64,000 nt of DNA. It comes from a plasmid. The notes under the pieces were generated by a model. The model was not told where the DNA came from. It did no database searches and saw only the letters and a program-made list of their open reading frames with translations. The stretch lies in the sequence record NZ_CP069608.1. The stretch is one strand, 5' to 3'. Position 1 is the first letter of the stretch; each line of letters begins with the position of its first letter. This document shows positions 3,175 to 33,801 of the stretch, one piece after another. Position numbers and translations under genes: made by a program.

Positions 3175-4209
3175 TTAACGTTCTACTTCGTGTGAATCAT
3201 GTTGTTTTGTCTTAGAATGTGCACCATTTTTCCGTGCGAAAAATTTCACAAAGCCATTTTGTGATTTCTCTTCTTTTTTCTGTTGGTCATGATTCTTTTT
3301 CTCCGTATCTAAGTTTTTTTCCAATTTGGTTAACTTTTCACGTTGCGAATCCGTCAAATCTAACCCTTTTAATTCCCTCAGCACTTCTTTTTTCAACTTA
3401 TAAACCTTATCAAACGAATGTTTTTGTTCAAATTCTCTCATCTTGGCCAAACGCTGCTCTTTCGCCTGTGGTGTTTCTTCTTTCGCCTTTGGTTGAACAG
3501 GTTCTTGTTTCTCCTGATCTCCTTGCTTATTTGATTCTTTTTCGGTTGTTTTTTCTTGTGATATGCCTAACTGTGTAAGCAACTGTTGTTTATAAACTGC
3601 TTTATATTGTGATTCTTCACTCGGCTTCTCCAGCTCATGAAGAAGTTCTTGCTTGTAATCATCTTTATATTGTCCTTGTTCTTTCGCCTGTTTTTGATCG
3701 TAGTAGTGCACCGATACACGAGACTCCATCGCATCCACCTGTTCCCTCGTAAAAGTGCCTTCTTTTATGGTCAGTCCTTTTAACTGTACATAGTCCTTTT
3801 CGGCATTCACACGCGCCAACATACTTTCGACATGTTGTGGCTGTTCTTGGTCATGTGCTTCTAACAACTTTTGATAACTCACTTGTAGCTGTTGGTCCCG
3901 ATCTTGTGGTAGTACAGGACTGACATCATGACTCGTTAAAAACTCAAGTGTTGTGTCACTTTCATACGCTTGTTTTTTTCCGGTTTCGTCTGTCGACACC
4001 AATAAAACCTGCGGTTTTCCTTCGCCTAATGCGGACTGCGTGAGGTAGATCGCGCCAGAAGGAATGTCTTGCAGCTGTTCACCACTGACATTCGCCCATC
4101 CTGCCTCAATTTTTTCATTCTGTGGGTGTTTCATAAACGTTTTTAACGCTCGTTTATCCGCAATAAGGGTATTAAATTGGTCATTTGAAAGAGATGTCAC
4201 TTTTTTCAT
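3175..4209 (-). CDS. Hypothetical highly charged Glu/Lys/Gln-rich protein.
   Basis: Complete 344-aa ORF in the operon. It is low-complexity and coiled-coil-like, and I recognise no catalytic motif. Confidence 0.35.
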   Translation of the reverse strand: MKKVTSLSNDQFNTLIADKRALKTFMKHPQNEKIEAGWANVSGEQLQDIPSGAIYLTQSALGEGKPQVLLVSTDETGKKQAYESDTTLEFLTSHDVSPVLPQDRDQQLQVSYQKLLEAHDQEQPQHVESMLARVNAEKDYVQLKGLTIKEGTFTREQVDAMESRVSVHYYDQKQAKEQGQYKDDYKQELLHELEKPSEESQYKAVYKQQLLTQLGISQEKTTEKESNKQGDQEKQEPVQPKAKEETPQAKEQRLAKMREFEQKHSFDKVYKLKKEVLRELKGLDLTDSQREKLTKLEKNLDTEKKNHDQQKKEEKSQNGFVKFFARKNGAHSKTKQHDSHEVER

Positions 4210-4265
4210 CGTTATTCCTCCATTTAAGTTTTATTTAGGCATAAAAAAAGAGCGTGCACGCTCGC

Positions 4266-4937
4266 TTATCTTTCCATTTCCTGTTCATCTTTTTTGTGTT
4301 TGACGGTACCTGTTCGCTTTTGAAAATATGGCTGATGCTCCTTTTCATGATGTGTTTTGAAAGTAAGAGGCTCTTTTTGAATTTGACCATGTATAACTCC
4401 CTGTTCATTTTTTTTCGTCACGGAATCTATTTGATGCTCAAGTTTTACCACTTCTTCTTTCGTCATCCATCCATTTTTAATGACTTTGACTTTGATTGAA
4501 TAATAGGTTTCCTCAGCCCTCACGCGCTCGAATACACTCTTTACATCGTCCGAAGATTCATTCTGCTGTTTTTCTCTATAAGCCTCATATCCTTCTTTCA
4601 ATTTTTTACGCACATTTTGAGGAAAAAGAGGCTCTTGTTGATCTATCTTCTTCTCAGATGATGGGTGTTTTTCTCGTTCATTGACAAGAGTTTCTTCCAT
4701 CGTTCCAATAAACTCAGCCGACGTTTCATGTACTTCTTTTAACAGGTTGGTTTTATCTTCAAAGGTTTTCCCCTTCGTCCAGTTCGACAGGTAATCGAGT
4801 GAGTACGAGCTCGTGTCGATTCCAAAGTAAGACGAAACGGTATAAGCTGTCATTTCAGCTTGAAACTCCTTTTCCGCCGCCGTATAGTTCATATGTGTTT
4901 CTTTTGTATGAAGCTTGGCGTGGGTCAACAAATCCAA
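4266..4937 (-). pseudogene. ardC: C-terminal fragment of an ArdC-like anti-restriction / zincin-like protein, separated from its N-terminal part by the RIT insertion.
   Basis: Begins ...DLLTHAKLH. Together with the end of ORF 8373-9077 (...LLHELT) this reconstitutes an HExxH-like LLHELTHAKLH motif across the insertion. Confidence 0.5.
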
Positions 4938-5042
4938 ACGTTTGGATTTGTTGACTTATCCCAACTAATTTTAAATCCAAACCTTTTTTTCGAATCGGTA
5001 TAAAAAAAGATTCTTATGATAAAAAGGTTTGGATTTTATTTA

Positions 5043-6092
5043 TTACTTTGCTAGAGCCTTTAATCCGCAGAATGAGCTTAGATCTTTACTATTAGATTTC
5101 CACTTTTTCGAGACCTTTGCATCATTCTCATCCTCCAAAGTTGCCATGGCTTTTAACTCTGCATCTGTTGTAATGTCGAGATAAATCATTGTAGTCTGAA
5201 CATTGGAATGACCGAGCAGAAAAGAAATCTGTACGATATTCATACCGTCTTCAAGCCAGTGGGATGCTTTAGCATGGCGAAATTGATGTGCATGGAGACT
5301 TAACGGTACATCACCACATATCTCATGTGCTGCTTTAGCATGTTTTTTTAACATCTTGGCAATAGCTGGTTGCGTGAGCTTCCCGTTTTTACCAGTGTTT
5401 CTAGAGTAAAACACATAGTCATCTGGGGTAGGCTTGTTACCATGAAACTCTTTTAAATAGCTTTTCACATGGGCTACGGCTTTCGGCAGAAGGTATAAAG
5501 TCCGTATTTTTCGACCTTTTCCAATGATAATTGCATATGGCTTTTGGTCATTTAAATGAAGTTGAGATATTTTCATATCCAATAGTTCATCCAATCGTGC
5601 TGCAGTTCCGTATAAAAAAACCATAAATGTGATATCTCTTTTTCCTGTTCTGGTCTGTGGATTAGGAACTGCCAGAAGCGCCTTTACTGCTTCACGACTC
5701 ATTCCCTGTACATTTTTCTTTGTCGTTTTCCGGGACTCGATTCTCGTAGCATCATTAGATAAGTATAGATATTTAATATCCCGGCTTCCAAGAAATTTTA
5801 AGAATACTCGTAACGAAGATAACCTAAGATTACAAGTTTCCGGACTACAGTTTCTGTTTTTCATCAGCCAAGTGAGCCATTCCTCAATCACAGGTTGTTC
5901 AAAACAGCCTGCTGAAAGATTCTCTGGGGATACAGATTTTACATCTGATAAAAATCCGATGTAGAGTGTTAGGGCAATATTATAGGACTTTAGGGTGTGC
6001 TGGCTTGTAGTTTTTTGTGTAGGAGCATAGTTGTCTAAAAAGGTATGGATGTATTGTGCCAATTCCCGTGCTTCAACATTAGCCTTCTTCAT
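5043..6092 (-). CDS. ritC: Tyrosine recombinase (third gene of the RIT trio).
   Basis: Catalytic region HAHQFRHAKASHWLEDGMNIVQISFLLGHSNVQTTMIYL carrying the R..H..R..Y signature. It overlaps the upstream recombinase gene. Confidence 0.8.
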   Translation of the reverse strand: MKKANVEARELAQYIHTFLDNYAPTQKTTSQHTLKSYNIALTLYIGFLSDVKSVSPENLSAGCFEQPVIEEWLTWLMKNRNCSPETCNLRLSSLRVFLKFLGSRDIKYLYLSNDATRIESRKTTKKNVQGMSREAVKALLAVPNPQTRTGKRDITFMVFLYGTAARLDELLDMKISQLHLNDQKPYAIIIGKGRKIRTLYLLPKAVAHVKSYLKEFHGNKPTPDDYVFYSRNTGKNGKLTQPAIAKMLKKHAKAAHEICGDVPLSLHAHQFRHAKASHWLEDGMNIVQISFLLGHSNVQTTMIYLDITTDAELKAMATLEDENDAKVSKKWKSNSKDLSSFCGLKALAK

Positions 6093-7050
6093 AGTCCACC
6101 TCCGGAATCAATTCATTAAACCCTGTTTCAGTTTGTTCCAAAAGGACTTCCGAGAGAGCTGGAACCAATGAGTAATAATACTTTACGGTGATATCGGCAG
6201 AAGTGTGTCCCATGCTTTTGCTAAGGTAAATGAGATTATCTTCAAATGACATCCCATGACCTACTAGCTTATTGATATTCTCAATAGCATAATTATGACG
6301 AAGTTCATAAGCCGTAGCGTATGTTGATTCAACTTGTTCCCACATAACCTTAAAATAATGTTGAACCCATGTACGACTTCTAAAACCAGTCGGTCCATTC
6401 GGGAAGAAATACATTCTTCCTGGATATAAATCTTCTATAACAAAATCGTATGTCTTCATCAGTACCAACATGCTGTCATGCATTACGACATAGTGCTGCT
6501 CATAACCTTTCGTGTTTACAATGCTGATAACACCTGTGTCAAGATTCACATTACACCGTCGAAGTTTTCTGGCTTCCGTTGTACGCATCCCCGTACTATA
6601 GAGAAGCCTAAAAAAAACAGGCAATGTATATTTGATGTTCAGGTGACTGGCAGTACGAAAGTTAAACGGCTTATAGCTGTCACAGGCCCTGAAGAAGAGC
6701 TGAAGCTCTTCTTTTGTGAACGGATGCGGAATATATAATCGCTTTTCAGCAGAGGGAATAACAGGTTCATTAGCATTCGTTAGACCCCTTTCCCTTAAAA
6801 ATCTGACAAGACTGACAATGGCATATATCCTAGAAATACAGCCATTGTTTGATTCTGACTCTCTTTGATTACACCAGGAATCTACCATGTCCTGAGTAAG
6901 AACTTTTTCTTCTGGAAAGTGCTGCAGGCAATGCTTATCAAACAAAAGGAGATTCATTCCATAAGAAGTATCATTCCATTTCATACAAGCTTTCCTAAAT
7001 CGTACAAAAGCTTCAAACTGTTCAGCTAGAGGAGATTTAAATTCGCTCAC
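6079..7050 (-). CDS. ritB: Tyrosine recombinase (second gene of the RIT trio).
   Basis: TAYELRHNYAIENI...GHTSADITVKYY integrase catalytic motifs. It overlaps both neighbouring genes. Confidence 0.8.
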   Translation of the reverse strand: MSEFKSPLAEQFEAFVRFRKACMKWNDTSYGMNLLLFDKHCLQHFPEEKVLTQDMVDSWCNQRESESNNGCISRIYAIVSLVRFLRERGLTNANEPVIPSAEKRLYIPHPFTKEELQLFFRACDSYKPFNFRTASHLNIKYTLPVFFRLLYSTGMRTTEARKLRRCNVNLDTGVISIVNTKGYEQHYVVMHDSMLVLMKTYDFVIEDLYPGRMYFFPNGPTGFRSRTWVQHYFKVMWEQVESTYATAYELRHNYAIENINKLVGHGMSFEDNLIYLSKSMGHTSADITVKYYYSLVPALSEVLLEQTETGFNELIPEVDYEEG

Positions 7051-8272
7051 TACAGAATACCCCCTCTCGCACTGGAAATGCTTCTATGCTTAGTGAACAT
7101 TCCTTCAGATGAATCATGTCAGCAGACAGATAAGCCTCAGTGGAGGCTGGGGAAGTGTGCCCCAAGATTCTGCTAATAACAGCTCTTGGTGCACCATTTT
7201 CAAGCATAGATGTTGCAAAGTTATGTCGGAACAGATGCCCACCTCTGCGATCGTTTGGATTCTGTCTGATTTCGGCATTTTTATAGATTTGATCTGCAAT
7301 AACGCCTATGGATCCTGGTTTTAGCTTTCCATAAGGGTAATTATAGGATAGAAAAATGTAAGGTTCATCAGATGTTTTCCTTTCCTGGGTAATGTAATCG
7401 TAAATAGCATTTCCTATTATAGCTGTCATAGGCAACTTCAATGGCACATCTGTTTTCTGCTGGTCAATGAATAGTTCATCCTTATCCCAGTCAATGTCAG
7501 AAAGTGTGAGATTGGAAATATCACAGCAACGAATTCCAGTAAAGTATAGTAAACAGCCAATTGCTCGATTTCGTTGACTTAAGGTATTATCGGCATTCTT
7601 TAAAGCACTTTTGACTTTTGTTCTTTCATGAGGCTCAAGATACTGGATATTTTTTCTATGTTTTCTGATTACCGGAATGCATAGAAGAATCCTCTGGCAT
7701 TCTTGACTCCATTCGATGGCACCTCTAAAAACTGCGATGATCTGCATCACATACGATGCGCTTTTAGTAGGGTAGCCAGAATCATCTGTAAGAACATGCA
7801 AGATGGCATCCTCTGTAATCTCTGTTAATGAGTTATATCCAGCTTTCTGGAGTGCAAGTAAAAATGAACTGGTATTCCAGCATTCATTACGGATAGTGGT
7901 TTCTTTTTTTAGTGCTTGATCTGTATTCGCATTGTAATAATCTATAAGGCTTTTAAATTCAGGATTCAGATAGTCATACGAAGATGGTTTTTGGAAATAA
8001 ATTGTTTTATCCTTTGCGCCAGGGAAAGCACCATAGCAATCAAATGAAGCAATTAAGTTTAGGATAGCCTTTTTCTTCGAAAAGTCCTTACCACTAATTG
8101 CTGCTTTCTTGTAATAATCCAAAATTTCATCATATGACTGCCATTGTTCGCTTTTAGACAGTATAAATTTCAGAACTTGCTTAACAACTTGCACATAGTT
8201 TTTGGAATATCCCGCAGCATACATGAAATCTACGAGCTGTGGATATGTGTTTTGCAAGTTTTCTACATTCAT
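7037..8272 (-). CDS. ritA: Tyrosine recombinase (first gene of the RIT trio).
   Basis: GHLFRHNFATSMLENGAPRAVISRILGHTSPASTEAYL catalytic region. Long N-terminal domain. Confidence 0.8.
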   Translation of the reverse strand: MNVENLQNTYPQLVDFMYAAGYSKNYVQVVKQVLKFILSKSEQWQSYDEILDYYKKAAISGKDFSKKKAILNLIASFDCYGAFPGAKDKTIYFQKPSSYDYLNPEFKSLIDYYNANTDQALKKETTIRNECWNTSSFLLALQKAGYNSLTEITEDAILHVLTDDSGYPTKSASYVMQIIAVFRGAIEWSQECQRILLCIPVIRKHRKNIQYLEPHERTKVKSALKNADNTLSQRNRAIGCLLYFTGIRCCDISNLTLSDIDWDKDELFIDQQKTDVPLKLPMTAIIGNAIYDYITQERKTSDEPYIFLSYNYPYGKLKPGSIGVIADQIYKNAEIRQNPNDRRGGHLFRHNFATSMLENGAPRAVISRILGHTSPASTEAYLSADMIHLKECSLSIEAFPVREGVFCSERI

Positions 8273-8372
8273 AATAATGTCCTCCTTTTAACCTGAAGAC
8301 ATTATTAACAAAATCCAAACCTTTTATTCATAAGAATCTTCTCTTATACCGATTCAGAAAAAAGGTTTGGAT

Positions 8373-9077
8373 TTAAAAATAGTAGGGATAAGTCAACTCG
8401 TGTAACAGGGTTTTGACATTTTGTTTTTCAGAGTTTCGAGGATTGAGGGCTACTTCTTTTGTTAGAGTATAGCTCACACCCTTAGCACTCCCTAGTTCCT
8501 CTTTTGGTGCAATAATTGCGATGCCGTTCTTTTCTGCGATAGCTTCCATTCCTTTATATAACGCCTTGTAATCCTCCACACTTCCCTCTAACCAACGATT
8601 TGGAAAGACTTTAGGTAAATCACTCGATTTTACGTTCGTCTGGACCACATCAAAAACATGGCCGACTGAAAAGTACAGTCGGCCTTGAGACACTTCTTTT
8701 TTTCCATCTTGTATCAGCTTCTTTTCTTGAGGAGTCGCTTTATTAATCGACTTCCACTTTCCCTTTTCATCTTGAAACTTAGGAACGGTTTTGTTTGGGA
8801 CCAGAATTTTAATCCCTTTCTCTCCTTTATTGACAGAGAATCCTTTTTCTTTCCAGAAAGCAAAGGAGCCAACGGCTTGTGCTCCCATGAATTGGTGTTG
8901 AATTAGTTGAGTGTTTGATAAAGAATATTGATGGAACTTACCCATGAAAGAGAGATACTCTTTTAAATCTTCTGGTGAATGAAAATGCTGTTCCATACGC
9001 TTCTCCATGTCCTTGGTGAGTGATTCAATTTCTTTTCTCTTCTCTTCGGCTGATTTTTTCACATATCCTTTACTCAT
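8373..9077 (-). pseudogene. ardC: N-terminal part of the ArdC-like anti-restriction protein (ssDNA-binding domain), truncated by the RIT insertion.
   Basis: ArdC/DUF1738-like N-domain. The ORF ends ...LLHELTYPYYF, and the last residues are encoded by the RIT terminal repeat. Confidence 0.55.
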
Positions 9078-9351
9078 CGTTCTCGTTCTCCTTTTGGTAT
9101 GAGATTTCTTTTAATTCCTCTAATTCTTGTTCAACCCAAGGTTCATCTACTTCGACAAAGAGCTTCTTCGTTTTGATATTCATCGGGATCAACATATCAC
9201 CTAGATGACTGATATATTGATGAAACTCCTTCGCTTCTTCTGGTGTAAAAAACACTTCCTCTTCTTGATCGCGATACTGTACAATCGCACTCTTTTCACC
9301 AATCGCTTTGATTGATACCAACACCACATCTTTTTGAAAAAACATATTCAT
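9070..9351 (-). CDS. Hypothetical small acidic protein.
   Basis: 93-aa ORF translationally coupled to the downstream gene. Confidence 0.3.
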   Translation of the reverse strand: MNMFFQKDVVLVSIKAIGEKSAIVQYRDQEEEVFFTPEEAKEFHQYISHLGDMLIPMNIKTKKLFVEVDEPWVEQELEELKEISYQKENENDE

Positions 9352-9378
9352 TTCCTCCTTCTATTTCGTTACACCTAT

Positions 9379-9819
9379 TCATTGAGTAGATGTAGATTTC
9401 CCTCTTGATTCTTCCCAATCAATTCGTTTTTGTCGCTGATGAGCAATACGTTCCTCCACTAATTCTCGTGCAATTCTCGTACTATCCATTTCTCGCATTT
9501 GAGTAGTAATGAGTCCTTTAAAACCTTGGAAAGCAAATAAGCCATTCATATACTCAATTAAAATCTGCGTATTTTTATCTGTCGCATTTGTGCCAAGACG
9601 GATCTTCTTAAGTTCCTCTTTTAGTACGTCATACAAGTTTTGACTGACGACTTCAGAAATATATTTCAATGACCATTCTTTACTTTGTTCGTTTCGATAC
9701 TTTTGGCAAATATCCATAATGGCTTCGCCAGGAAAACGAAAATGATGCTCTTCCATATAAGATTGAATATACTCGTCTGTTTCCATATCTAATGAAATGG
9801 TACGTCTCTGTTTTTCCAT
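9379..9819 (-). CDS. Relaxosome accessory protein, paralogue of ORF 11012-11389.
   Basis: N-terminus RRTISLDMETDEYIQSYMEEHHFRFPGEAI. The paralogue reads RRMVSFDIKTDEYLQKYMKEQQFRFPGDAI. Confidence 0.4.
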   Translation of the reverse strand: MEKQRRTISLDMETDEYIQSYMEEHHFRFPGEAIMDICQKYRNEQSKEWSLKYISEVVSQNLYDVLKEELKKIRLGTNATDKNTQILIEYMNGLFAFQGFKGLITTQMREMDSTRIARELVEERIAHQRQKRIDWEESRGKSTSTQ

Positions 9820-11015
9820 TATTCATACCCTCTTTCCGTTGTATGTTTATGTTCGATTTCTTTTTGTAATCGTTCATAGTGCTGTTGGTTTTTCCAACTT
9901 TCATATTCACTTTTAAAAGCTCGTTCCATTCTTTTTAAGGATGCATGCATCGACACATGCTGCTGAAATCCTTTGGGACGTTTGGATGTTTTCCCATGCT
10001 CGATAAGACGTTGAGCACGCTGTTGCTTTTCATCATAAGTCTTCATTTCTTGTAAAAAAGCATTGCCCATTCGCTGATATAACTCATCGATTTTATTCTG
10101 CTTATAATCTTTATATCGTTTTTGATCATTTGTTCCTTCCCCATAAGCTTTCTTTAATTCTTTGACCTCTTCATCTAGTTTTTTAAGTAGCTGTTGGTAC
10201 TCTTTTTGATGATGTTTTTCAATATAGTGTTGACTTAACATATTGATTAAAGGTTTAAGAGGCTTTATGGTTTGATATCCATAGTGCCATTGTCTTTTAT
10301 CAACCGGTAGATGATTATAAATTTGTAGAAACAAAGGTTTCATGTGACGGTTTTTCCATGTCATCGAGGAATCTTGTTTCTTTCTATCTACAATGCGCGC
10401 ACGGATTAACTCATTAATTTCTTTTTGATAATCGCCTCTCTCTATGATTTGATTCACTACTTTAGACTTCATTGCATCTAATGTTTGAGGTTTTCGTTTT
10501 CCTCGTTTGCGTGTAGGATCTGGCTCTACGGTAGCAACATGAATATGGATGTTTTGGGTATTATAATGAATAGCAGCCGACCAAACAGCCGACTGATCTA
10601 ACTTTTCCCTTTTAAGCATTTCCTCCATTGATTGACGAGTCACATGCATTAACTTTTGTTCATTAACTGTATGAGTACGTGCATCATATAGCCCATTTTC
10701 TTCGAGCCACGCATTATGGAAGGTGATAACATCTTGCCACATGATACTCTGATTTTTTTGTGCGGTTTCAAACAGTATTTTTAATTGTTGCTTCTCTTCT
10801 TTGTTTAACTGATCAGCGTGTTTTGTAAATAACGCTGAGGTCTTTTCAGGGTTATCCATGTAATCATGATAATGTGAAAAATGTAGCTCAGGACTCTCTT
10901 CTTTTTGGGCTTCTTCACGATCGACATACTCTACATAATCTTGAAAGGCTTTTTGATTGGCTGTAATGAATTTTGTTTTCAGTACGACACCCGGTGTAAG
11001 AGAAGCTACACTCAT
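9819..11015 (-). CDS. Conjugative relaxase with a MOB-type histidine triad.
   Basis: HYNTQNIHIHVATVEP matches the HxH motif III of MOB relaxases. It sits beside the oriT-like repeats and the T4SS operon. Confidence 0.65.
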   Translation of the reverse strand: MSVASLTPGVVLKTKFITANQKAFQDYVEYVDREEAQKEESPELHFSHYHDYMDNPEKTSALFTKHADQLNKEEKQQLKILFETAQKNQSIMWQDVITFHNAWLEENGLYDARTHTVNEQKLMHVTRQSMEEMLKREKLDQSAVWSAAIHYNTQNIHIHVATVEPDPTRKRGKRKPQTLDAMKSKVVNQIIERGDYQKEINELIRARIVDRKKQDSSMTWKNRHMKPLFLQIYNHLPVDKRQWHYGYQTIKPLKPLINMLSQHYIEKHHQKEYQQLLKKLDEEVKELKKAYGEGTNDQKRYKDYKQNKIDELYQRMGNAFLQEMKTYDEKQQRAQRLIEHGKTSKRPKGFQQHVSMHASLKRMERAFKSEYESWKNQQHYERLQKEIEHKHTTERGYE

Positions 11016-11389
11016 TGGTTATACCTTTCTAAAATAGCTGCCACCAATTCTCCTCGTTTGGCAGCTTGTTTTTCTTCTACTTCTTGAAAGATTTCCATTA
11101 TCGATCGCTTCATACTTTCTTCCATGCAAAACCATTCATTTCGTAGAAAGAGGCGCTCCGTTTCCATGAGTTGATTTATTTTTTCAGCGATGGCTCCTAC
11201 CATTTCCTCGACAGATGGAACAGGTACAATCTGACTTGGTGTTTCTTGTTTTTCTTCTTTTAGTGTTTGATGCTCTAAACAGATACGAGCAATCGCATCT
11301 CCAGGAAAACGAAATTGTTGTTCTTTCATATATTTTTGAAGGTATTCGTCTGTTTTTATATCGAAAGAAACCATTCTTCTTTGTTTCAT
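11012..11389 (-). CDS. Relaxosome accessory protein, paralogue of ORF 9379-9819.
   Basis: Conserved N-terminal 40 aa shared with ORF 9379-9819. Overlaps the relaxase start. Confidence 0.4.
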   Translation of the reverse strand: MKQRRMVSFDIKTDEYLQKYMKEQQFRFPGDAIARICLEHQTLKEEKQETPSQIVPVPSVEEMVGAIAEKINQLMETERLFLRNEWFCMEESMKRSIMEIFQEVEEKQAAKRGELVAAILERYNQ

Positions 11390-21390: not shown

Positions 21391-23920
21391 GTAGGGTAAG
21401 AACCCGGCGCCTTAAGACCTCTCGGTCTTAGGTTTCCGAGAACTCCCCCCCGAACCGTACGTACCCCTCTCAAGGTATACGGCTCTCCGTCTCTTCAGTC
21501 TAGCTTCCCGTTATGCAGGTCACGATGACACTTTCGACAAAGTATCATTGTTTTACGGTTCCTTGCTATCATCTGTCTTTCCCATTTCTTTTTCCCTTTA
21601 AGGTTCTTTAACTTTCGAACATGATGAACTTCCATTGAACCTTCTTCAGCCTTACACCATTCACATTGATTAGCCATCAACCTTTGAATAAGGGATGTTC
21701 GGGATTGGTATGATACTTCCGAAGGAAGTTTTTCTATATCCTTTTTTGTTATAGGAGCTTTATTCCTACGAAATCCCTTATCATAAAGCACTTCTGTTTT
21801 CTTACCGGACTTTGTCATATAACTGACTTGGAATATTCCGTTCACCATAAATTTTCGTTTAGCTTTACTTAAGGTCGTACGGTACTTATTTGCTAAGGTT
21901 TTATACATAGAATATTCAAGGAGATACTTATAACTATTTAAGTGGCACACATTCACTGCCAGTTGATAATATTGATAGGTTCCACGTATTTGGGCATTAT
22001 AGTTCCTTAGAATCTCAAGAGGAACCAATTTAATTAATTCCGGACGATGCATTGGTTTCCATTTTCCTGTCTTTTGGTTGACCTTTATTGCCCCTTTTTT
22101 AAATAAGCGACTATAAACAAGATCAGTAGGCATATATAGTTCGCACTTTAACGAAAATGCTCTTGTTTTTATTCCATCACTTCGTCGTTTAGAGTGAAAA
22201 TCTCGCCCAACTTTAACGTCATAACCTAAAAATCGAGCCTTATGCCTCGTATTTGTTATAAGTGTTTTCTCCTCGGATAACGTTAGCTTAAGTTCAGATT
22301 TCAAGAAATTAGCGATGTCTTTCTTTGCTCTACACGCATCTTCCTTACTCCCAATGACTCCAATCAGAAAGTCATCTGCGTATCTCACATATTGAATTCG
22401 TTTGTAGTTTTCATCCATTGGATACCGTTGGGGAGTGCGTTCTCTTTCAGCTAATAACTGGCGTATCCTATTACTCAACTCTTTTTCCCGTACTTCATCT
22501 TTTTCTTTAGCTTCCCTTAGTTCTTTCTTAGCCCCACTTATCTGATGCTGAATTTTAGAATAGGCTGGATTTGTCCTTTTAGCTTTTCCTATATCAAAAG
22601 TTGACTTATATCTACTCATAAAGTTGTCTAATTCATTCAGATAGATATTTGCTAATAGAGGGCTAAGAATACCACCTTGTGGTGTACCACTAAACGTCTT
22701 ATGGAACTTCCAATCTTCCAAGTAACCAGCTCTAAGAAACTTCCATATAAGCGAAATAAATTGTTCATCATCAATCCTCTTCCTTAGGATATTGATAAGA
22801 ATATGATGATTAATATTGTCAAAAAAGCCTTCAATATCACCTTCGATGAACCATCTGCTCCCCGTAAATGTGCCTTTAACCTGAATCAGAGCTGTATGGC
22901 AGCTCTTTTCAGGGCGAAAGCCATGAGAGAACTTACTAAAAGTTGGTTCATAGATGGATTCTAATAGGTTTTTGATGACCTCTTGAACTAATTTATCTTC
23001 TACTGAAGGTATGCCTAATGGACGCTTTTTTCCATTTTTCTTTGGAATATAAACTCTTCTTACTGGTTGTGGCTGATAAGAAAAATCTCGTAATTTATCG
23101 ACTAACCCTGAGATTCTTTTTGTAGACATTCCGTCAATGGTCTTTCCATCTGTTCCAGCAGTCATGTTTCCTTCGCTGGCGTATATGTTTTGATAGGCAT
23201 CAAGGAAAAATAATGGATTGTACAGATTTCGATATAACTTCTTGTATTTATATCCTGCTTTGTTACTGTAAGATGCTAGATTTTCTAATACGATTTTTGG
23301 GCTTCGCAAGAGCCTCACGCCCCTTCCCAATTTAATATTAGTCGAAAAGACTGTTCTCCTTCGCCTTGTACGAGGCTTTCCCTCGCTCTGACTACTACGA
23401 GAACTCCGTTACCATATTGGATTTTCATGAGCCACATACCTTGCTTTTTACACTTGGTATCATCCTCAATAGCCTCCTTACGAGGCGCTCCAGGTTAGGT
23501 AATCCCCATTTAGTACATATAGAGACTAGACTCGTTATGATGTCGGATGCCACTTTCGTCCGTTACTTGTTATCCAAGTTAGTCAGTCTTTGGTCTGCCA
23601 TACGTATCACGTATGTTCAATGGAAACTTCGGAAACATTTCCATTCTTTGACTGCGAAGCGTTTCAATGACCCTTCACTTCGGGCGACGATACTCCACTT
23701 TAGACTATGGTTGAAGCAGTTTAGCCTTCATCCTTATTCACAACATTTTTTTACCTTGCCCCTCAGTCGTACCTAGGTCATTTTGGTAACTTAGGGCTTT
23801 CCTTGCATGCTCTGGTCCCCTCCGGGTTTCCCCATGTAGGTAAGCAAGGTGGTAACTGGGTTAAGCGCAGACTCCCATCTCTTGTCTAAGGAGATTCTCT
23901 ATATGCCCGTATGGGCGCAC
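21391..23920 (-). mobile_element. Group II intron (ORF-containing) inserted in the coupling-protein gene.
   Basis: 5-prime GTGCGCCCATACGGGC at 23920 on the minus strand. Domain V GAGCCGTATACCTTGAGAGGGGTACGTACGGTTCGGG. Domain VI ends ...CCCTAC at 21391. Removing it joins LLDEFG to NMPAIEG in frame. Confidence 0.8.
21495..23330 (-). CDS. Group II intron-encoded reverse transcriptase/maturase with a C-terminal HNH endonuclease.
   Basis: RT domains with YADD, an X/maturase region, and C-terminal CEWCKAEEGSMEVHHVRKLKNLKGK...CRKCH. Confidence 0.9.
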   Translation of the reverse strand: MGRGVRLLRSPKIVLENLASYSNKAGYKYKKLYRNLYNPLFFLDAYQNIYASEGNMTAGTDGKTIDGMSTKRISGLVDKLRDFSYQPQPVRRVYIPKKNGKKRPLGIPSVEDKLVQEVIKNLLESIYEPTFSKFSHGFRPEKSCHTALIQVKGTFTGSRWFIEGDIEGFFDNINHHILINILRKRIDDEQFISLIWKFLRAGYLEDWKFHKTFSGTPQGGILSPLLANIYLNELDNFMSRYKSTFDIGKAKRTNPAYSKIQHQISGAKKELREAKEKDEVREKELSNRIRQLLAERERTPQRYPMDENYKRIQYVRYADDFLIGVIGSKEDACRAKKDIANFLKSELKLTLSEEKTLITNTRHKARFLGYDVKVGRDFHSKRRSDGIKTRAFSLKCELYMPTDLVYSRLFKKGAIKVNQKTGKWKPMHRPELIKLVPLEILRNYNAQIRGTYQYYQLAVNVCHLNSYKYLLEYSMYKTLANKYRTTLSKAKRKFMVNGIFQVSYMTKSGKKTEVLYDKGFRRNKAPITKKDIEKLPSEVSYQSRTSLIQRLMANQCEWCKAEEGSMEVHHVRKLKNLKGKKKWERQMIARNRKTMILCRKCHRDLHNGKLD

Positions 23921-25648
23921 TCCAAATTCATCCAGTAAAAACACCACTTCACGGTGACACTTATTTCCTTTAGCCAGCGACGCATTTTTGGCTAATACAT
24001 AATACAGTTGACGCACAAAAATAGAGGCAATCACATGATTACTAGAATCATAGTCAGGTGTAACCATAAAGATCGCAATTGGCTTTGTAAAATACGTCAC
24101 TTCGCTTACGTGGATGTCTGGATGTTGTTTCTCTACGCGAAAAGAAGTGGTTCCTTTTTTTCGGTCTATATTATAGACCGATACAACCGTTTCATTTTTA
24201 TGATCGGTGACAATCTGATCGTTCACTTTTTCAGCAATCCGAATTTCATTTTCTTTTGGCTTAATCTCACTTGTAAAATTAAGTTCAAATAAACCTTTGG
24301 CATCCGTTTTAATACTTTCCACTTTCCCATCGGGAAAGGTCACCTCTAAACGTGTAAGAGGCATCGCTTTTCCTTTCAGGGTCTTTCCAAAGCCTACGCG
24401 CTTTAGATCCACACTATTTTTAGCCGTCATTTTTGCAATTTCGTCAAACGTGAAAATAGACAATCCATTCATCGTTTGGGTAAAGATCCCGCCCCGTGTT
24501 GTGCCTTTCGAGAAGTTTGATGTCGCATATTGCATTTTCGCGACACTATTCGTTGGTAAATCATCGAAATACATATCCAGTGCATTTTGTGTATTTCCTT
24601 TTTTATCAATCACGACTTCTTTTGATCCTAACTCTGACAACATATTAGCTACCGTGTACATCGTAATCTTTTCTTCTGTTTTTTCATTAATACACTTATC
24701 TGTTACAGCTAGAATCATGGCATTACAAAGACTCATCGCACATTGTTGCCAAAAGGGATCTTTGGCATTAGGGTTGTAGTAAAGCGTATACGATAAGGTA
24801 TTACACAATGCTTGAGCTGTTGAGTAATCGTCGTCTTTATACGTTTCTTTTATCATCTCCAATAGGTTATAGCTCATGGATTCTAATGGATTTAATAAAT
24901 TTAGAACTTCAATATGATATCCTCTCTTTTCAAGCGTTTCCTTCGAAGCTGCAAGCAATTCTGCCTTGGGATCGTTGAGGATCAACGAAGGCTGTTTTTC
25001 AGCCCTTGAATATACGTCAATCGCTGGAATGACAAAAGTTTCTCCTTTTCCTGATCGTGTAATCCCTATAATGAGATTATTTACAGGTGTATCATCAATT
25101 AATAAATGATTACGAGTCGTAAATAGTTGATGTGCTTTAAATAATTTATCCATCCCCTTTAACTTTTGATAGTCGCACCAATTGTGAATGAGATTACGCG
25201 TTTTGATACGGGATATTGGTACACCACCTCCGCCTTGATAATATTCGGTTTTTTCGGGTACTTTCCGATATTGTTTTTGAAGCTCTCGACGTGTTGTAAA
25301 GCGTCCAGATCCTTTTTGGTTTTGGTTTAAGTCTTTGAAGTTGGATCGTACATCATACGTCAATTTGGCCGTCAGTAAGCAGGAAACAAGTGCCATCATG
25401 CAGTAGATGGCTGCATACTGATGGGTGTTCATCTGCCAGAAAAACGAGAGAGACAAATGAAATGGCTGCGGATCAAACACATCACTAAACGTAGTTTGAA
25501 TGAGACTTCGCAGCGTATTGAATAAAAAGTTTAAAATCAGAAAAATAAGTACAAAAAAACAAGCACTTAAAGGAATAAGCACTTGTTTCTCAGCTATGAT
25601 ATATTTGATAGATTTAGTAGGTTGCATGCTGTACCTCCTGTTGCACAT
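23921..25648 (-). CDS. virD4: Type IV coupling protein (VirD4/TraG family), exon 1.
   Basis: N-terminal TM helices and Walker A GITRSGKGETFVIP. The ORF ends ...VVFLLDEFG immediately before the intron GTGCG. Confidence 0.75.
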
Positions 25649-26047: not shown

Positions 26048-28782
26048 ATAGGTAAGAGTTTGATGTAATCTCCGTCTTTTCCCCCGGTTAACACTGTACG
26101 TGCGACTTTCACCGCATACAGCGTCCCATCATTATTTGTTAACATTCACATAAATTAATTTAGCCTCTTTCTCGAAAGAGAAGTTAAGCAGGTTCACTTA
26201 GTAATTCCTTAAGTTTTATAACGGAATTTCCAGCTGTCTTACGAAATTTGTTCAGCTTCTTGAGCGATTGCTGGTTTAGGTTGAGTAAAGCAATATACTT
26301 TAAGATTGTTTCTTCTCTAGTGGCATGAATTAGTTTATGAACATCTTTTGTTACCCAAATGAGATTTTTGTACTCATTGGTTCCTCCTCTTCTAAGGGGG
26401 ATAATATGATGACATTCCATTGAGCCAATTTCTAGAGATTGCTTGGATATACCACATAACCCAGCTTGACCGACATATAACGATATCCTATTGTCATTGT
26501 ATAAAACAGTGCTGTTAGTAATAGGGTTTTTCATTATATATGCGAGAACAGAAAGATTTACCTTCTTGAGATTTTCGTGGACTTTCGCTCTACCTATCAC
26601 GGTATAGTTACAAATATCCTGTGAAAACATCATTGGTTTTGCGAATTTTACATACGAGATAGGTAATACAGGTACATAGTTTTTAGCGTATAGCTTCCCC
26701 TTGTACTCTTTGTAGTACTTATTGTATGTTCCATATCTTTTAACCTTTTGTCTCTTTTGGTGTTCATTAGCTTTGATAATTTGTGTCCAAGATCTTAACC
26801 TGTTGTACATTGCATTCCTGACTGAAAAGGCAATTTTGCTGAAATCTTCGGCAACATTGGTAGCAATTTTATAGTAATTATGCTGACCAATGATGATGGA
26901 GTTCAGTTTGTTAATAGCTGCTACGGTTTTAAGTCTCTGTACATTCTTTATTCCATCCATTAGTGTCTCACGAATGTTCTTTGCCGCCTTGGGACTGATA
27001 TTAGATTCGATAACATATCCCTTTTTGGTTTTGCCTTTCCTTCTGACCTTGAAGGTAAACCCAAGAAAATTTGAGTGTTTTTGTTTAAGATTTATGATTT
27101 GGGATTTTTCAGGATTAGCTTTTAAACCAAGTCTTTCACCAAGCCACTTTACAGTAGCAATTGAGACTTTTTTTGCTGTGTGGTGATTTGGACAAAAGAT
27201 TTTCAGGTCGTCTGCAAACCTAACAATGTAACATTCTTTAAGATTCGTCTGGTCTTTCAATGCTTTAAACCTGTTAGATCCGAGAGTGCCTTTATAGGTA
27301 TGTTTCGTAGGGAAGTTCTCCCATTGTGAACTAATCCACCAATCTAATTCATTAAGGACTATATTAGACAGCAAAGGAGACAAAATTCCACCTTGCGGTG
27401 TACCTTTATTAGGGACTCCTTCACCTTCGATTTCAGCTTTAATGAGCTTTGAAATGATGCGGATCAGATTTTTATCCCTAATGCCCATTGTCCAGATTTG
27501 TTTTAACAGTTTAGAGTGGTTAACATTGTCAAAAAATCCTTCAATGTCTATATCTACTACGTGATGGAGTCCTTGCATATTCACAAGGAAATGTACTTTT
27601 GCCATAGCATGATGCTGATTTCGGTTCGGTCTGAATCCATAACTATATGGGTAAAATTTGGCCTCACATATAGGTTCCATTACTTGAAGAATGCATTGTT
27701 GTAAAAGTCTATCTTCAATTGATGGAATTCCCAAGGGCCTTTTCTTCCCACTTCTGTCGTTTTTGGGAATCAATTTCCTTCTCACCATATGTGGCGTAAA
27801 GTTTTCAATTCGATTTTGGACGTATTTTATCAGTTCCGATTCCGTAAACTTTTCCAAATCCGTTATAGTATGTCCATTCACACCTGGGGTTTTAGAGCCT
27901 TTTCTCGATTTAATGTTTCGAAATGCAAGCTTTATGTTTTCTTCAGCAGTAATAATTGGAACTAGATTTTTAAATACTCTGTCCCTCTTACTTCCCGCGT
28001 ACAAATTATCGTAGGTTTGTTGCATATCATAATACTCATTGAACCTAAGTTTCTTTCGCTTATTCTTTTTGATAGAGTTCACTGGTCGGTTAATCTTCCT
28101 TCCTTTGGAATTTCGCCTCTTTTAGTCATACTCGAACCCAGCAAATAAATTAATTTTTAATAGTTAACAAATAATGACTAGTGGCTATCCCTCCACGTTT
28201 ATTAGACGTTTCATTGGTACCGTGCCACCACCTTCACCAGTGCTAAACAAGTTATATTTAACAAGGTTAAACTTTCCTTGTACTGTTTCACAACGGATAA
28301 TCGCTCCACATCACTGGCTTACCCAGTTCCCATAGTTCTATCCTTACATATTTCCTTAGGTGCTTTCTATAAGCCTACAAGCTCCAATAACTCCAATTAA
28401 GTTATAGGGATTTTCATATCTTAGAATCTTACTTACCCCCGGCTTGCCCCATCATCGATGGTAAATGCATTTCTACATTTTTCTCTTTTAGACCCGTACA
28501 TTCGAAAGTTCGTCAGTTCTTAAGAACATTCTCACCATAGAAATTTTATGGACTCCCGATCTATCATCTACACTATCTGCCTCCAGATAGCTTTCCTCAA
28601 CCAAATGTTAGGGTAGACTTCAACCGACTTCACCGAGCTTCGAACAATTTCCCAATTATCTGAGAAACTGCACGTCGGAATATTAGAGGGACCCTTCTGG
28701 ACGTTACTCCATCATTTGATCTCTCGAACTAAGAGTTTCCCTAATTAGGGAGCCAACCTTTTCAGTTAGCAACTGGTCGCAC
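26048..28782 (-). mobile_element. Group II intron (ORF-containing, distinct lineage) interrupting the 171-aa gene.
   Basis: 5-prime GTGCGACCAGTTGC at 28782. Domain V GACGCTGTATGCGGTGAAAGTCGCACGTACAGTGTT. Ends ...CTTACCTAT at 26048. Confidence 0.75.
26184..28082 (-). CDS. Group II intron-encoded reverse transcriptase/maturase with HNH endonuclease (second lineage).
   Basis: RT motifs including FADD, and C-terminal CHHIIPLRRGGTNEYKNLIWVTKDVHKLIH. Confidence 0.9.
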   Translation of the reverse strand: MNSIKKNKRKKLRFNEYYDMQQTYDNLYAGSKRDRVFKNLVPIITAEENIKLAFRNIKSRKGSKTPGVNGHTITDLEKFTESELIKYVQNRIENFTPHMVRRKLIPKNDRSGKKRPLGIPSIEDRLLQQCILQVMEPICEAKFYPYSYGFRPNRNQHHAMAKVHFLVNMQGLHHVVDIDIEGFFDNVNHSKLLKQIWTMGIRDKNLIRIISKLIKAEIEGEGVPNKGTPQGGILSPLLSNIVLNELDWWISSQWENFPTKHTYKGTLGSNRFKALKDQTNLKECYIVRFADDLKIFCPNHHTAKKVSIATVKWLGERLGLKANPEKSQIINLKQKHSNFLGFTFKVRRKGKTKKGYVIESNISPKAAKNIRETLMDGIKNVQRLKTVAAINKLNSIIIGQHNYYKIATNVAEDFSKIAFSVRNAMYNRLRSWTQIIKANEHQKRQKVKRYGTYNKYYKEYKGKLYAKNYVPVLPISYVKFAKPMMFSQDICNYTVIGRAKVHENLKKVNLSVLAYIMKNPITNSTVLYNDNRISLYVGQAGLCGISKQSLEIGSMECHHIIPLRRGGTNEYKNLIWVTKDVHKLIHATREETILKYIALLNLNQQSLKKLNKFRKTAGNSVIKLKELLSEPA

Positions 28783-33333: not shown

Positions 33334-33801
33334 TTATTCTTCAAAGTACAGTTCTTTTGATGTTCCAATGAAATGAGATAATTCACCCTCTAATTCAGAT
33401 GGATCATATTCATCAAGCTTAATCTGTTGTTTCAATTCTCCATTCTTATAAGCAGCTAATGTGTCAGTATCCTGTTGTAAACCATAATAAGTTTGGCTCT
33501 TTTTTTGATTGTAAAGAGGATCATAACTGTAAATCTCTTTAGCATCTACATCATTTTCCTTTAACGCCTTTTGCACTTCATTCATGTAAACTACACGTTT
33601 TTCCTCATCGAACGAACACATCACAAATCCCGTACCATCTTCTTTCATGAACTTTTTCATTTCAAGAGGTTTTAATTCTTCTAGCTGACCATTTCCTTGT
33701 ACTGGACTTGAATTCTGAGAAGAGATTGCTGCCGTTCCAATTCCTAATGCAACGACAATCCCTGCGGCTGCCGCCATGATTTTTTGTTTACGATTCATCA
33801 T
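33334..33801 (-). CDS. Secreted/membrane-anchored protein, first sizeable gene of the transfer operon.
   Basis: N-terminal signal/TM segment IMAAAAGIVVALGIGTAAI. Confidence 0.45.
   Translation of the reverse strand: MMNRKQKIMAAAAGIVVALGIGTAAISSQNSSPVQGNGQLEELKPLEMKKFMKEDGTGFVMCSFDEEKRVVYMNEVQKALKENDVDAKEIYSYDPLYNQKKSQTYYGLQQDTDTLAAYKNGELKQQIKLDEYDPSELEGELSHFIGTSKELYFEE

Follow-up and report, generated by a model that had tools for sequence, protein, structure and literature searches.

A recombinase-in-trio element inside an ArdC-like gene of a Priestia plasmid and a two-core recombination model for its insertion

The 64-kb stretch of plasmid DNA analysed here (sequence record NZ_CP069608.1; hereafter the window) carries on its minus strand three tyrosine recombinase genes forming a recombinase-in-trio (RIT) element, which lies inside the gene for an ArdC-like protein of a conjugation module. 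RIT elements were described in 2009-2013 and are widespread across bacterial phyla. The ritABC genes of Cupriavidus metallidurans CH34 and C. necator pHG1 are reportedly the subject of work by Van Houdt (2009/2012) and Ricker (2013). The junctions of the element, a second copy on another plasmid and the corresponding empty site suggest that it was inserted by site-specific recombination, carrying a six-base sequence from its previous site to the new one. From the N-terminal portion of the interrupted gene to its C-terminal one, the locus contains the following features.

8392-9077, minus strand: N-terminal part of the ArdC-like gene (ArdcN), ending ...LLHEL(T); the open reading frame (ORF) 8373-9077 extends into the element, ending YPYYF*.
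8392-8397, minus strand: attL hexamer, GTTGAC in gene sense (third base of a Glu codon, a Leu codon and the first two bases of a Thr codon); presumed target-derived, by analogy with the copy in plasmid pPmC-142-1 (L001; L numbers are our locus designations) and the empty site L096.
8304-8391, no strand: RitA-proximal terminal inverted repeat (TIR), with the tip arm TTATCCCTAC at 8382-8391 (minus) and subterminal AAATCCAAAC at 8365-8374 (minus) and 8311-8320 (plus).
7037-8272, minus strand: ritA, a tyrosine recombinase of 411 aa with R...HxxRH...Y motifs.
6079-7050, minus strand: ritB, 323 aa, GTG start, overlapping ritA by 14 nt.
5043-6092, minus strand: ritC, 349 aa, the most XerC/D-like of the trio, overlapping ritB by 14 nt.
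4956-5043, no strand: RitC-proximal TIR, with the tip arm TTATCCCAAC at 4956-4965 and subterminal AAATCCAAAC at 4973-4982 (plus) and 5027-5036 (minus).
4950-4955, no strand: internal hexamer (GTTGAC on the plus strand) between tip arm and palindrome; spacer of the putative internal core site 'C1'.
4930-4949, no strand: perfect 20-bp palindrome, AAATCCAAAC followed by GTTTGGATTT, in which the subterminal motif occurs twice in inverted arrangement; belongs to the mobile unit and is found at a single end.
4924-4929, minus strand: attR hexamer, GTTGAC in gene sense; presumably imported by the element, by analogy with pPmC-142-1.
4266-4923, minus strand: C-terminal portion of the ArdC-like gene, from (T)HAKLH... 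onwards; the ORF as called (4266-4937) starts at a spurious TTG within the palindrome.

All three recombinase ORFs are intact and their products score above the Pfam cut-off for PF00589 (Phage_integrase; 90, 52 and 93 bits). RitA and RitC contain HxxRH and RitB contains ELRH, in all three followed downstream by GH...Y, and R248, R349 and Y381 of RitA are invariant across 45 homologues. When the trio was compared by BLASTP, three by three, with RitABC of C. necator pHG1, to which it is 24-28% identical, each protein matched its counterpart (A-A 3e-26, B-B 7e-26, C-C 7e-41) and all off-diagonal pairs scored 1e-10 or weaker. Because the trio pairs one-to-one with RitA, RitB and RitC of pHG1, the element is, on this comparison, a true RIT, intact and of a lineage found in Bacillota. 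The original prediction, which had recognised an RIT in the three overlapping genes and had suggested a comparison with known members, is thus upheld. NCBIfam has no RIT-specific model, and the trio gave only sub-threshold, Xer-type matches there. Sizes and gene order agree with the archetype, in which the proteins measure 315-410 aa (PMC10214605). The 'Tyrovirus' phages with three tyrosine recombinases were considered and rejected as unrelated, as their genes are dispersed.

The inverted repeat arms (4950-5043 and 8304-8397) are 94 nt long and 89% complementary, a pairing that is clearly above chance yet imperfect. They had been described as near-identical TIRs of ~95 bp; inverted copies they are, but at this complementarity 'near-identical' does not hold. 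Between the element ends lie only the three recombinase genes, with no cargo. The perfect palindrome, AAATCCAAACGTTTGGATTT, is confined to one end, where the order is GTCAAC (4924-4929), the two palindrome halves (4930-4949), GTTGAC (4950-4955) and the tip arm. GTCAAC does occur at both junctions (4924-4929 and 8392-8397), as had been noticed, and has a third, inverted copy at 4950-4955; its meaning is refined below to that of crossover hexamers. The 10-mer AAATCCAAAC is present six times in the window, all within the element (chance expectation 0.42), with two copies making up the palindrome and two in each terminal repeat. As delimited here, the mobile unit of 3,468 bp would comprise TTATCCC...GGGATAA together with a 6-bp hexamer, the 20-bp palindrome and a carried hexamer (window 4924-8391, to judge from the copy in pPmC-142-1).

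The upstream flanking ORF (8373-9077) ends ...KTLLHELT followed by YPYYF*, the latter encoded by the terminal repeat, and the downstream ORF (4266-4937) starts (M)DLLTHAKLH. In silico removal of 4930-8397 (equivalent to 4924-8391) yields a single continuous ArdC-like ORF of 447 aa, which contains ...KTLLHELTHAKLH... and reads ...LLHELTHAKLH.... It is 90% identical, gap-free (404/447), to the intact ORF of the same length in Priestia megaterium pPmT-2, and the restored junction DNA gives one contiguous alignment in 30 Priestia/Bacillus plasmids. These results bear out the proposals that the flanking ORFs are halves of one ArdC-like gene, that they reconstitute HELTHAKLH and that the last residues of the truncated N-terminal product come from the TIR; two of the checks that had been suggested, the deletion and the search for an uninterrupted homologue, gave the expected outcome. 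The upstream half matches ArdcN (PF08401; 44.1 bits, cut-off 22.6, E = 3e-11). In the C-terminal half HELTH (HExxH) is regained on deletion; its matches to Peptidase_M78 and DUF6782 are sub-threshold, and a PDB sequence search with the restored protein gave no meaningful match. Homologues on other plasmids are annotated as 'ArdC-like ssDNA-binding domain-containing protein' or 'ImmA/IrrE family metallo-endopeptidase'. The gene is located within a conjugation module with a MobL relaxase, a lysozyme/NlpC-P60 hydrolase, a VirB4-like ATPase and a coupling protein, a setting that would suit a putative anti-restriction role in conjugation; the leading region named in the original prediction is a presumed location. 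To judge from the reading frames, the RIT insertion split the gene at the DNA coding for HELTH (HExxH), leaving an ArdcN-only stub and a promoterless C-terminal part. For the host plasmid this would mean that the protein lacks its C-terminal HExxH portion, a loss that may be reversible.

Within the plasmid collection, close similarity at the DNA level was confined to P. megaterium pPmC-142-1 (NZ_CP069607.1), which is 100% identical over window positions 4954-8397; all other RitA matches in the plasmid database are <30% identical. In pPmC-142-1 the element occupies the same codon of an ardC homologue (...LLHEL/THAKLH), in the opposite orientation and with the trio antisense to the gene, and the flanks are ~77% identical to those of the window right up to the hexamer. 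In gene sense the window reads CACGA-[GTTGAC]-TTATCCCTAC...GGGATAA-[GTCAAC]-palindrome-[GTTGAC]-CCACGCC and pPmC-142-1 reads CATGA-[ACTCAC]-TTATCCCAAC...GGGATAA-[GTCAAC]-palindrome-[GTTGAC]-ACATGCC. The corresponding empty site, on a plasmid of P. megaterium DSM 32 (L096), is CATGA-ACTCAC-ACATGCC and is 99.7% identical to the pPmC-142-1 flanks. The junction hexamers of pPmC-142-1 thus differ (ACTCAC at attL, GTTGAC at attR), and it follows from the comparison with the empty site that no target duplication took place and that in this plasmid ACTCAC is native and GTTGAC imported. The imported hexamer is exactly that of the window copy. The palindrome was brought in by the element and, for either orientation of the trio, is located gene-downstream. 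Compared in this way, the pPmC-142-1 copy is a second, independent insertion, and the identical element in another plasmid backbone next to a nearly identical empty site argues that the element is mobile as a unit. Because the hexamers of pPmC-142-1 differ and the empty site shows no duplication, the GTCAAC repeats are most likely a 6-bp crossover (coupling) sequence and not the product of an ordinary target-site duplication. A metagenomic variant of 98% identity (L003:395-425) has GTGAGT as the outer hexamer next to one of its palindromes. This hexamer is ACTCAC reverse-complemented, as would fit a coupling sequence brought along from a former residence in ardC to a non-ardC site.

RitA homologues number 891 at E<=1e-20. 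A scan of genome contigs, one genome per species, with an alignment of 45 RitA sequences returned 80 loci from Bacillota, Desulfobacterota, Bacteroidota and other phyla; the same scan with a single RitA protein as query found no relatives. In ~35 loci the TIRs measure 85-100 nt and the element 3.43-3.48 kb. The family tip is (G)TTATCCAAAC, followed by a spacer of 7 nt and then AAATCCAAACC, and in most loci a palindrome is found at one end only, 6 nt off the tip. Among the 20 palindrome-bearing ends catalogued, the information content is 1.77 bits per position for the palindrome, 1.76 for the arm and 1.80 for the subterminal repeat, and 0.51 for the hexamers, which in this respect resemble flanking DNA. 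Palindrome half-sites co-vary with the arms (L080, L046, L076, L015). Contigs of multicopy elements break off inside the hexamer, at the TTATCC arm or no more than 2-5 nt away from it (e.g., L043, 3,441 bp at 1326x coverage). Many RitA homologues occur on contigs near element length (3.3-3.5 kb) that end at this arm (L043, L027, L052, L009, L017). These element-length contigs point to multicopy, recently active elements in the samples concerned; as assembled circles they were rejected, since they are without terminal direct overlaps and represent collapsed repeats. Some copies are free of palindromes and have two N-terminal target halves (L011, L026, L034, L054, L066), and others have a palindrome at both ends (L003, L004 and L038, with two C-terminal flanks, and also L088). 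Such copies would be the reciprocal products of inversion between two inverted copies, or chimeric assemblies.

In at least 15 loci an ORF is regained across the junction when the stretch from arm to arm is taken out together with a hexamer, the palindrome and the second hexamer. Every such ORF reads ...H(D/T/S)(L/F)/RH(S/T)(F/Y)..., the box II sequence of tyrosine recombinases. Without exception the palindrome lies towards the C-terminal half of the target; the trio is sense in 12 loci and antisense in eight. A native origin of the palindrome in ardC, or its being the footprint of an older element, was discarded: intact homologues are without it and ORF restoration in these independent targets needs its removal. 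Most of the ~35 relatives with this end architecture sit in HxLRH-coding DNA of other recombinase genes, frequently in the ritB of a further RIT. An outer, pHG1-like RIT has its ritB interrupted in L008, L023, L051, L057, L060-L062 and L069, in the order outer ritA, ritB N-half, inner ritABC, ritB C-half and outer ritC (around locus coordinates 4200-11300). This nesting resembles hyperparasitism of RIT in RIT and could be the reason for the 'complex combinations' in which RIT genes have been described on pHG1. Closer to the window copy, L092 (RitA 64% identical) occupies a zincin-type site (...IIHELA/HANLHD), L004 (72%) has ArdC-like C-terminal halves on both flanks and L088 (58%) adjoins ...GHDILH. 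At the DNA level HDLRH and HELTH share one motif in one register, CAYGA-[N-YTN-NN]-N-CAY (i.e., CAYGA-N6-NCAY), and the element therefore appears to recognise DNA and not a gene.

How the element came to its present site can be put together from these observations. Tip arm TTATCCAAAC and palindrome half-site GTTTGGATTT form imperfect inverted repeats around a variable 6-bp spacer, a layout that, by its resemblance to known cores, is that of an Xer/Cre-type core site. We propose that the recombination sites are classical core sites with 10-bp inverted arms, GTTTGGAT[T/A][T/A] and [T/A][T/A]ATCC[C/A]AAC, on either side of a 6-bp overlap. In the circular form the repeat tips would be joined via the 20-bp palindrome (...GGGATAA-N6-AAATCCAAAC-GTTTGGATTT-N6-TTATCCC...), so that the joined ends would present two back-to-back, oppositely oriented cores sharing this palindrome, either of which could recombine with the degenerate target CAYGA-N6-NCAY. 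Because either core could do so, both trio orientations would be expected together with a one-sided palindrome that always lies 3' in the target gene. Of the two junctions, the one lying 5' in the target gene would keep the target hexamer and the one lying 3' would receive the hexamer of the previous site, without target duplication. Recombination of attL with attR, whose overlaps in the window are both GTTGAC, would restore ardC precisely. In Salegentibacter the attL/internal/attR hexamers are TCTTAG/CAGGTA/TCTTAG in L057, L061 and L062, and TCTTAG/CTAAGA/TACCTG in L060, in which the element is inverted in the same target gene. The hexamers of L057 and L060 match exactly what excision by attL x attR and reintegration via the other core would produce, and the pair formed by the window and pPmC-142-1, read in the same manner, obeys this rule too. 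We infer a circular intermediate from these junctions; which protein binds which arm, and current activity, are likewise matters of inference. We put at roughly 0.75 the probability that an intact RIT was placed into the HELTH-coding DNA of the ArdC-like gene by site-specific recombination of a two-core circular form, with carry-over of a hexamer.

Several points weigh against this interpretation. RIT transposition has never been reproduced experimentally (PMC10214605), and the predicted circular junction was not observed: the only metagenome contig matching it (L087, JGI contig Ga0123357_10031109, 1-7242) is most likely an artefact. Read in reverse complement, this contig of 7,242 bp is 100% identical to itself, with the RIT palindrome at its centre, and it was rejected as evidence for a circle; an assembler fold-back at the palindrome is the most likely origin, a head-to-head dimer a less likely one. 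Just two or three pairs are informative on which junction retains which hexamer. The copies with a palindrome at both ends or at neither (L003, L004, L038, L011, L026 and others) call for a secondary rearrangement or a chimeric assembly as explanation. As a target, the motif is loose: in the window CAYGANYTNNNNCAY has one other match, CATGAACTTTTTCAT at 33646-33660 (plus strand), against 0.95 expected, and this match is unoccupied and antisense to a 155-aa ORF. The relatives L090, L064 and L045 lie in sites without the motif. A scan for promoters and terminators over 4200-9200 found sites no more frequent than in shuffled controls; the repeat upstream of ritA contained none. Finally, part of the end architecture may have been published already.

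Alternatively, the intermediate in which the element moves might be linear with hairpin ends, like a telomere, or a single strand folded back on itself, a route that has been suggested for sphingomonad RITs, with the palindrome as the trace of hairpin formation or resolution. The perfect palindrome at one end, the exonuclease-protected RIT DNA without detectable circular junction (PMC5737581) and the perfectly palindromic 7.2-kb contig L087 would all suit such an intermediate. However, a fold-back by the assembler is the best explanation of this contig, the arms and 6-bp spacer resemble ordinary Xer/Cre-type cores, and the reappearance of the donor's internal hexamer, reverse-complemented, at the new attR (L057/L060) as well as both orientations follow from joined ends with two cores; we consider a hairpin route improbable. 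A domesticated reversible switch, in which regulated excision restores ardC, e.g., in donor or transconjugant cells and comparable to skin or phage regulatory switches, in place of purely selfish transposition, would account for the identical GTTGAC overlaps at attL and attR, excision between which would restore the frame exactly, for the same gene position being struck in several lineages and for the co-orientation of the window trio with the transfer operon. It is harder to reconcile with an ardC that is uninterrupted in most Priestia plasmids, with a trio antisense to its target gene in pPmC-142-1 and with the location of most family members in unrelated genes (other recombinases), which fits recognition of a DNA motif and not regulation of ArdC, and we regard it as distinctly improbable.

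Even less credit can be given to a single ancient insertion in ardC that was inherited vertically, the difference in orientation having arisen only by in situ inversion between inverted cores, as by an invertase. Such an inversion is mechanistically plausible, as attL and the internal core represent the same site in inverted orientation, and Salegentibacter shows both orientations at identical flanks. Yet the element is 100% identical in the window and pPmC-142-1 where the flanks are only ~77% identical, pPmC-142-1 has a 99.7%-identical empty site, and the attR hexamer of L060 has changed as well, which inversion between attL and the internal core cannot yield; we therefore judge this history very improbable. 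That there is no real insertion, and that an assembly artefact or a chance juxtaposition is seen, is next to impossible: nothing specific speaks for it apart from the artefactual contigs among the metagenome relatives, whereas a finished RefSeq plasmid and dozens of independent genomes show the same element and junction logic, and the reading frame is restored exactly.

Beyond the insertion by a two-core circle, a more general picture may be drawn, to which we give slightly less than an even chance as a whole: RIT elements of this family would follow a circular two-core logic around the 20-bp palindrome with Tn554-like hexamer carry-over, and would home to CAYGA-N6-NCAY, a sequence that incidentally encodes catalytic histidine motifs. 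They would preferentially knock out ritB of other RITs and other integrases (HxLRH), and among elements of the Priestia lineage the sequence lies in DNA for the zincin HExxH of ArdC-like genes; precise excision would make such knock-outs reversible. A transposon could thus home to catalytic-motif DNA, be it of rival recombinases or, on conjugative plasmids, of a gene of the anti-restriction type. As an insertion, the event is ordinary biology for elements of a known class, of which the window copy is a further member, in Priestia and in a new target gene. The window, the pPmC-142-1 copy and the empty site form a natural before-and-after pair that gives candidate attL, attR, attP-like and attB sites to the base. 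The 'variable ends' of RITs would be explained as 6-bp coupling sequences, and a specific circular junction is predicted. The locus and its sister copy thereby provide this transposon family with a testable model at base level. What goes beyond the accessible literature, with priority uncertain, is the att-site model in explicit form, the pair of occupied and empty sites, the shared target motif and the nesting of RIT in ritB.

Elsewhere in the window, two ORFs for group II intron-type reverse transcriptases (21495-23330 and 26184-28082, minus strand), one of them with maturase and HNH domains, flank the coupling-protein gene of the type IV secretion system (23861-25648). Window positions 1 to ~1100 match only a subset of related plasmids. 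In pPmT-2 (L002:2119-5842) the counterpart of this segment belongs to a module with tyrosine recombinases of 389 and 711 aa and a DUF6262 protein; this three-gene module resembles a Tn554-like transposon and adjoins restriction-endonuclease/Toprim genes.

Like the RITs of CH34 and pHG1, the window element consists of overlapping recombinase genes A (~410 aa), B (~320 aa) and C (~340 aa) over ~3.5 kb with flanking inverted repeats, and these elements too are found on plasmids or integrative and conjugative elements and interrupt genes. It differs in its gene overlaps (14 nt vs. 4-8 nt as reported), in its host, Priestia (Bacillota), and in its target, the HExxH site of an ArdC-like gene. Published RITs interrupt radC in two integrative and conjugative elements and an IS66 tnpA (PMC2864759). 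A palindromic sequence at one RIT end has been mentioned earlier (PMC3414803), the ends have been called 'variable' (PMC10214605; PMC3414803), and an overview of 2023 listed target specificity and movement of RITs as not tested ('NT'; PMC10214605). In a mobilome study RIT DNA was protected from exonuclease and a circular junction was not detected (PMC5737581). Att sites and a mechanism such as those proposed here are absent from the accessible literature on these elements. The interrupted gene is similar to ArdC of pSa/R388 in its N-terminal ArdcN single-stranded DNA-binding domain, its C-terminal HExxH and its position adjoining a relaxase in a transfer module, although the window protein has no significant match to an ArdC metalloprotease Pfam family or to a PDB chain.

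Among other recombinase systems, Tn916 and CTnDOT share with the RIT described here a variable 6-bp overlap, a tolerance of mismatch between element and target and junction hexamers that can differ. They possess one integrase plus Xis, lack an architecture of TIRs and palindrome and are conjugative, whereas the window carries a 3.5-kb transposon. A parallel is offered by Tn554 and the SE elements, which cause no target duplication and carry a 6-bp sequence of the previous site to one new junction (PMC10214605). The same carry-over without duplication is seen here when pPmC-142-1 is compared with its empty site and L057 with L060. These elements, however, are without long terminal inverted repeats and encode a non-recombinase protein (TnpC/Srap, Tfp), unlike the all-recombinase trio with its 94-nt TIRs and palindrome, its two alternative cores and its occurrence in both orientations. 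Membership of the Tn554 family (TnpA, a long TnpB recombinase and a small TnpC, without TIRs) was rejected: the window trio measures 323-411 aa, there is no TnpC-like ORF and long TIRs are present, so that the resemblance is limited to hexamer carry-over. Membership of the SE/GInt elements, which have four conserved genes, including the non-recombinase Tfp/GinC and Srap/GinD, and cargo, was likewise rejected for three genes that all encode recombinases and no cargo. The comparison would also tie RITs mechanistically to Tn554 and the SE elements.

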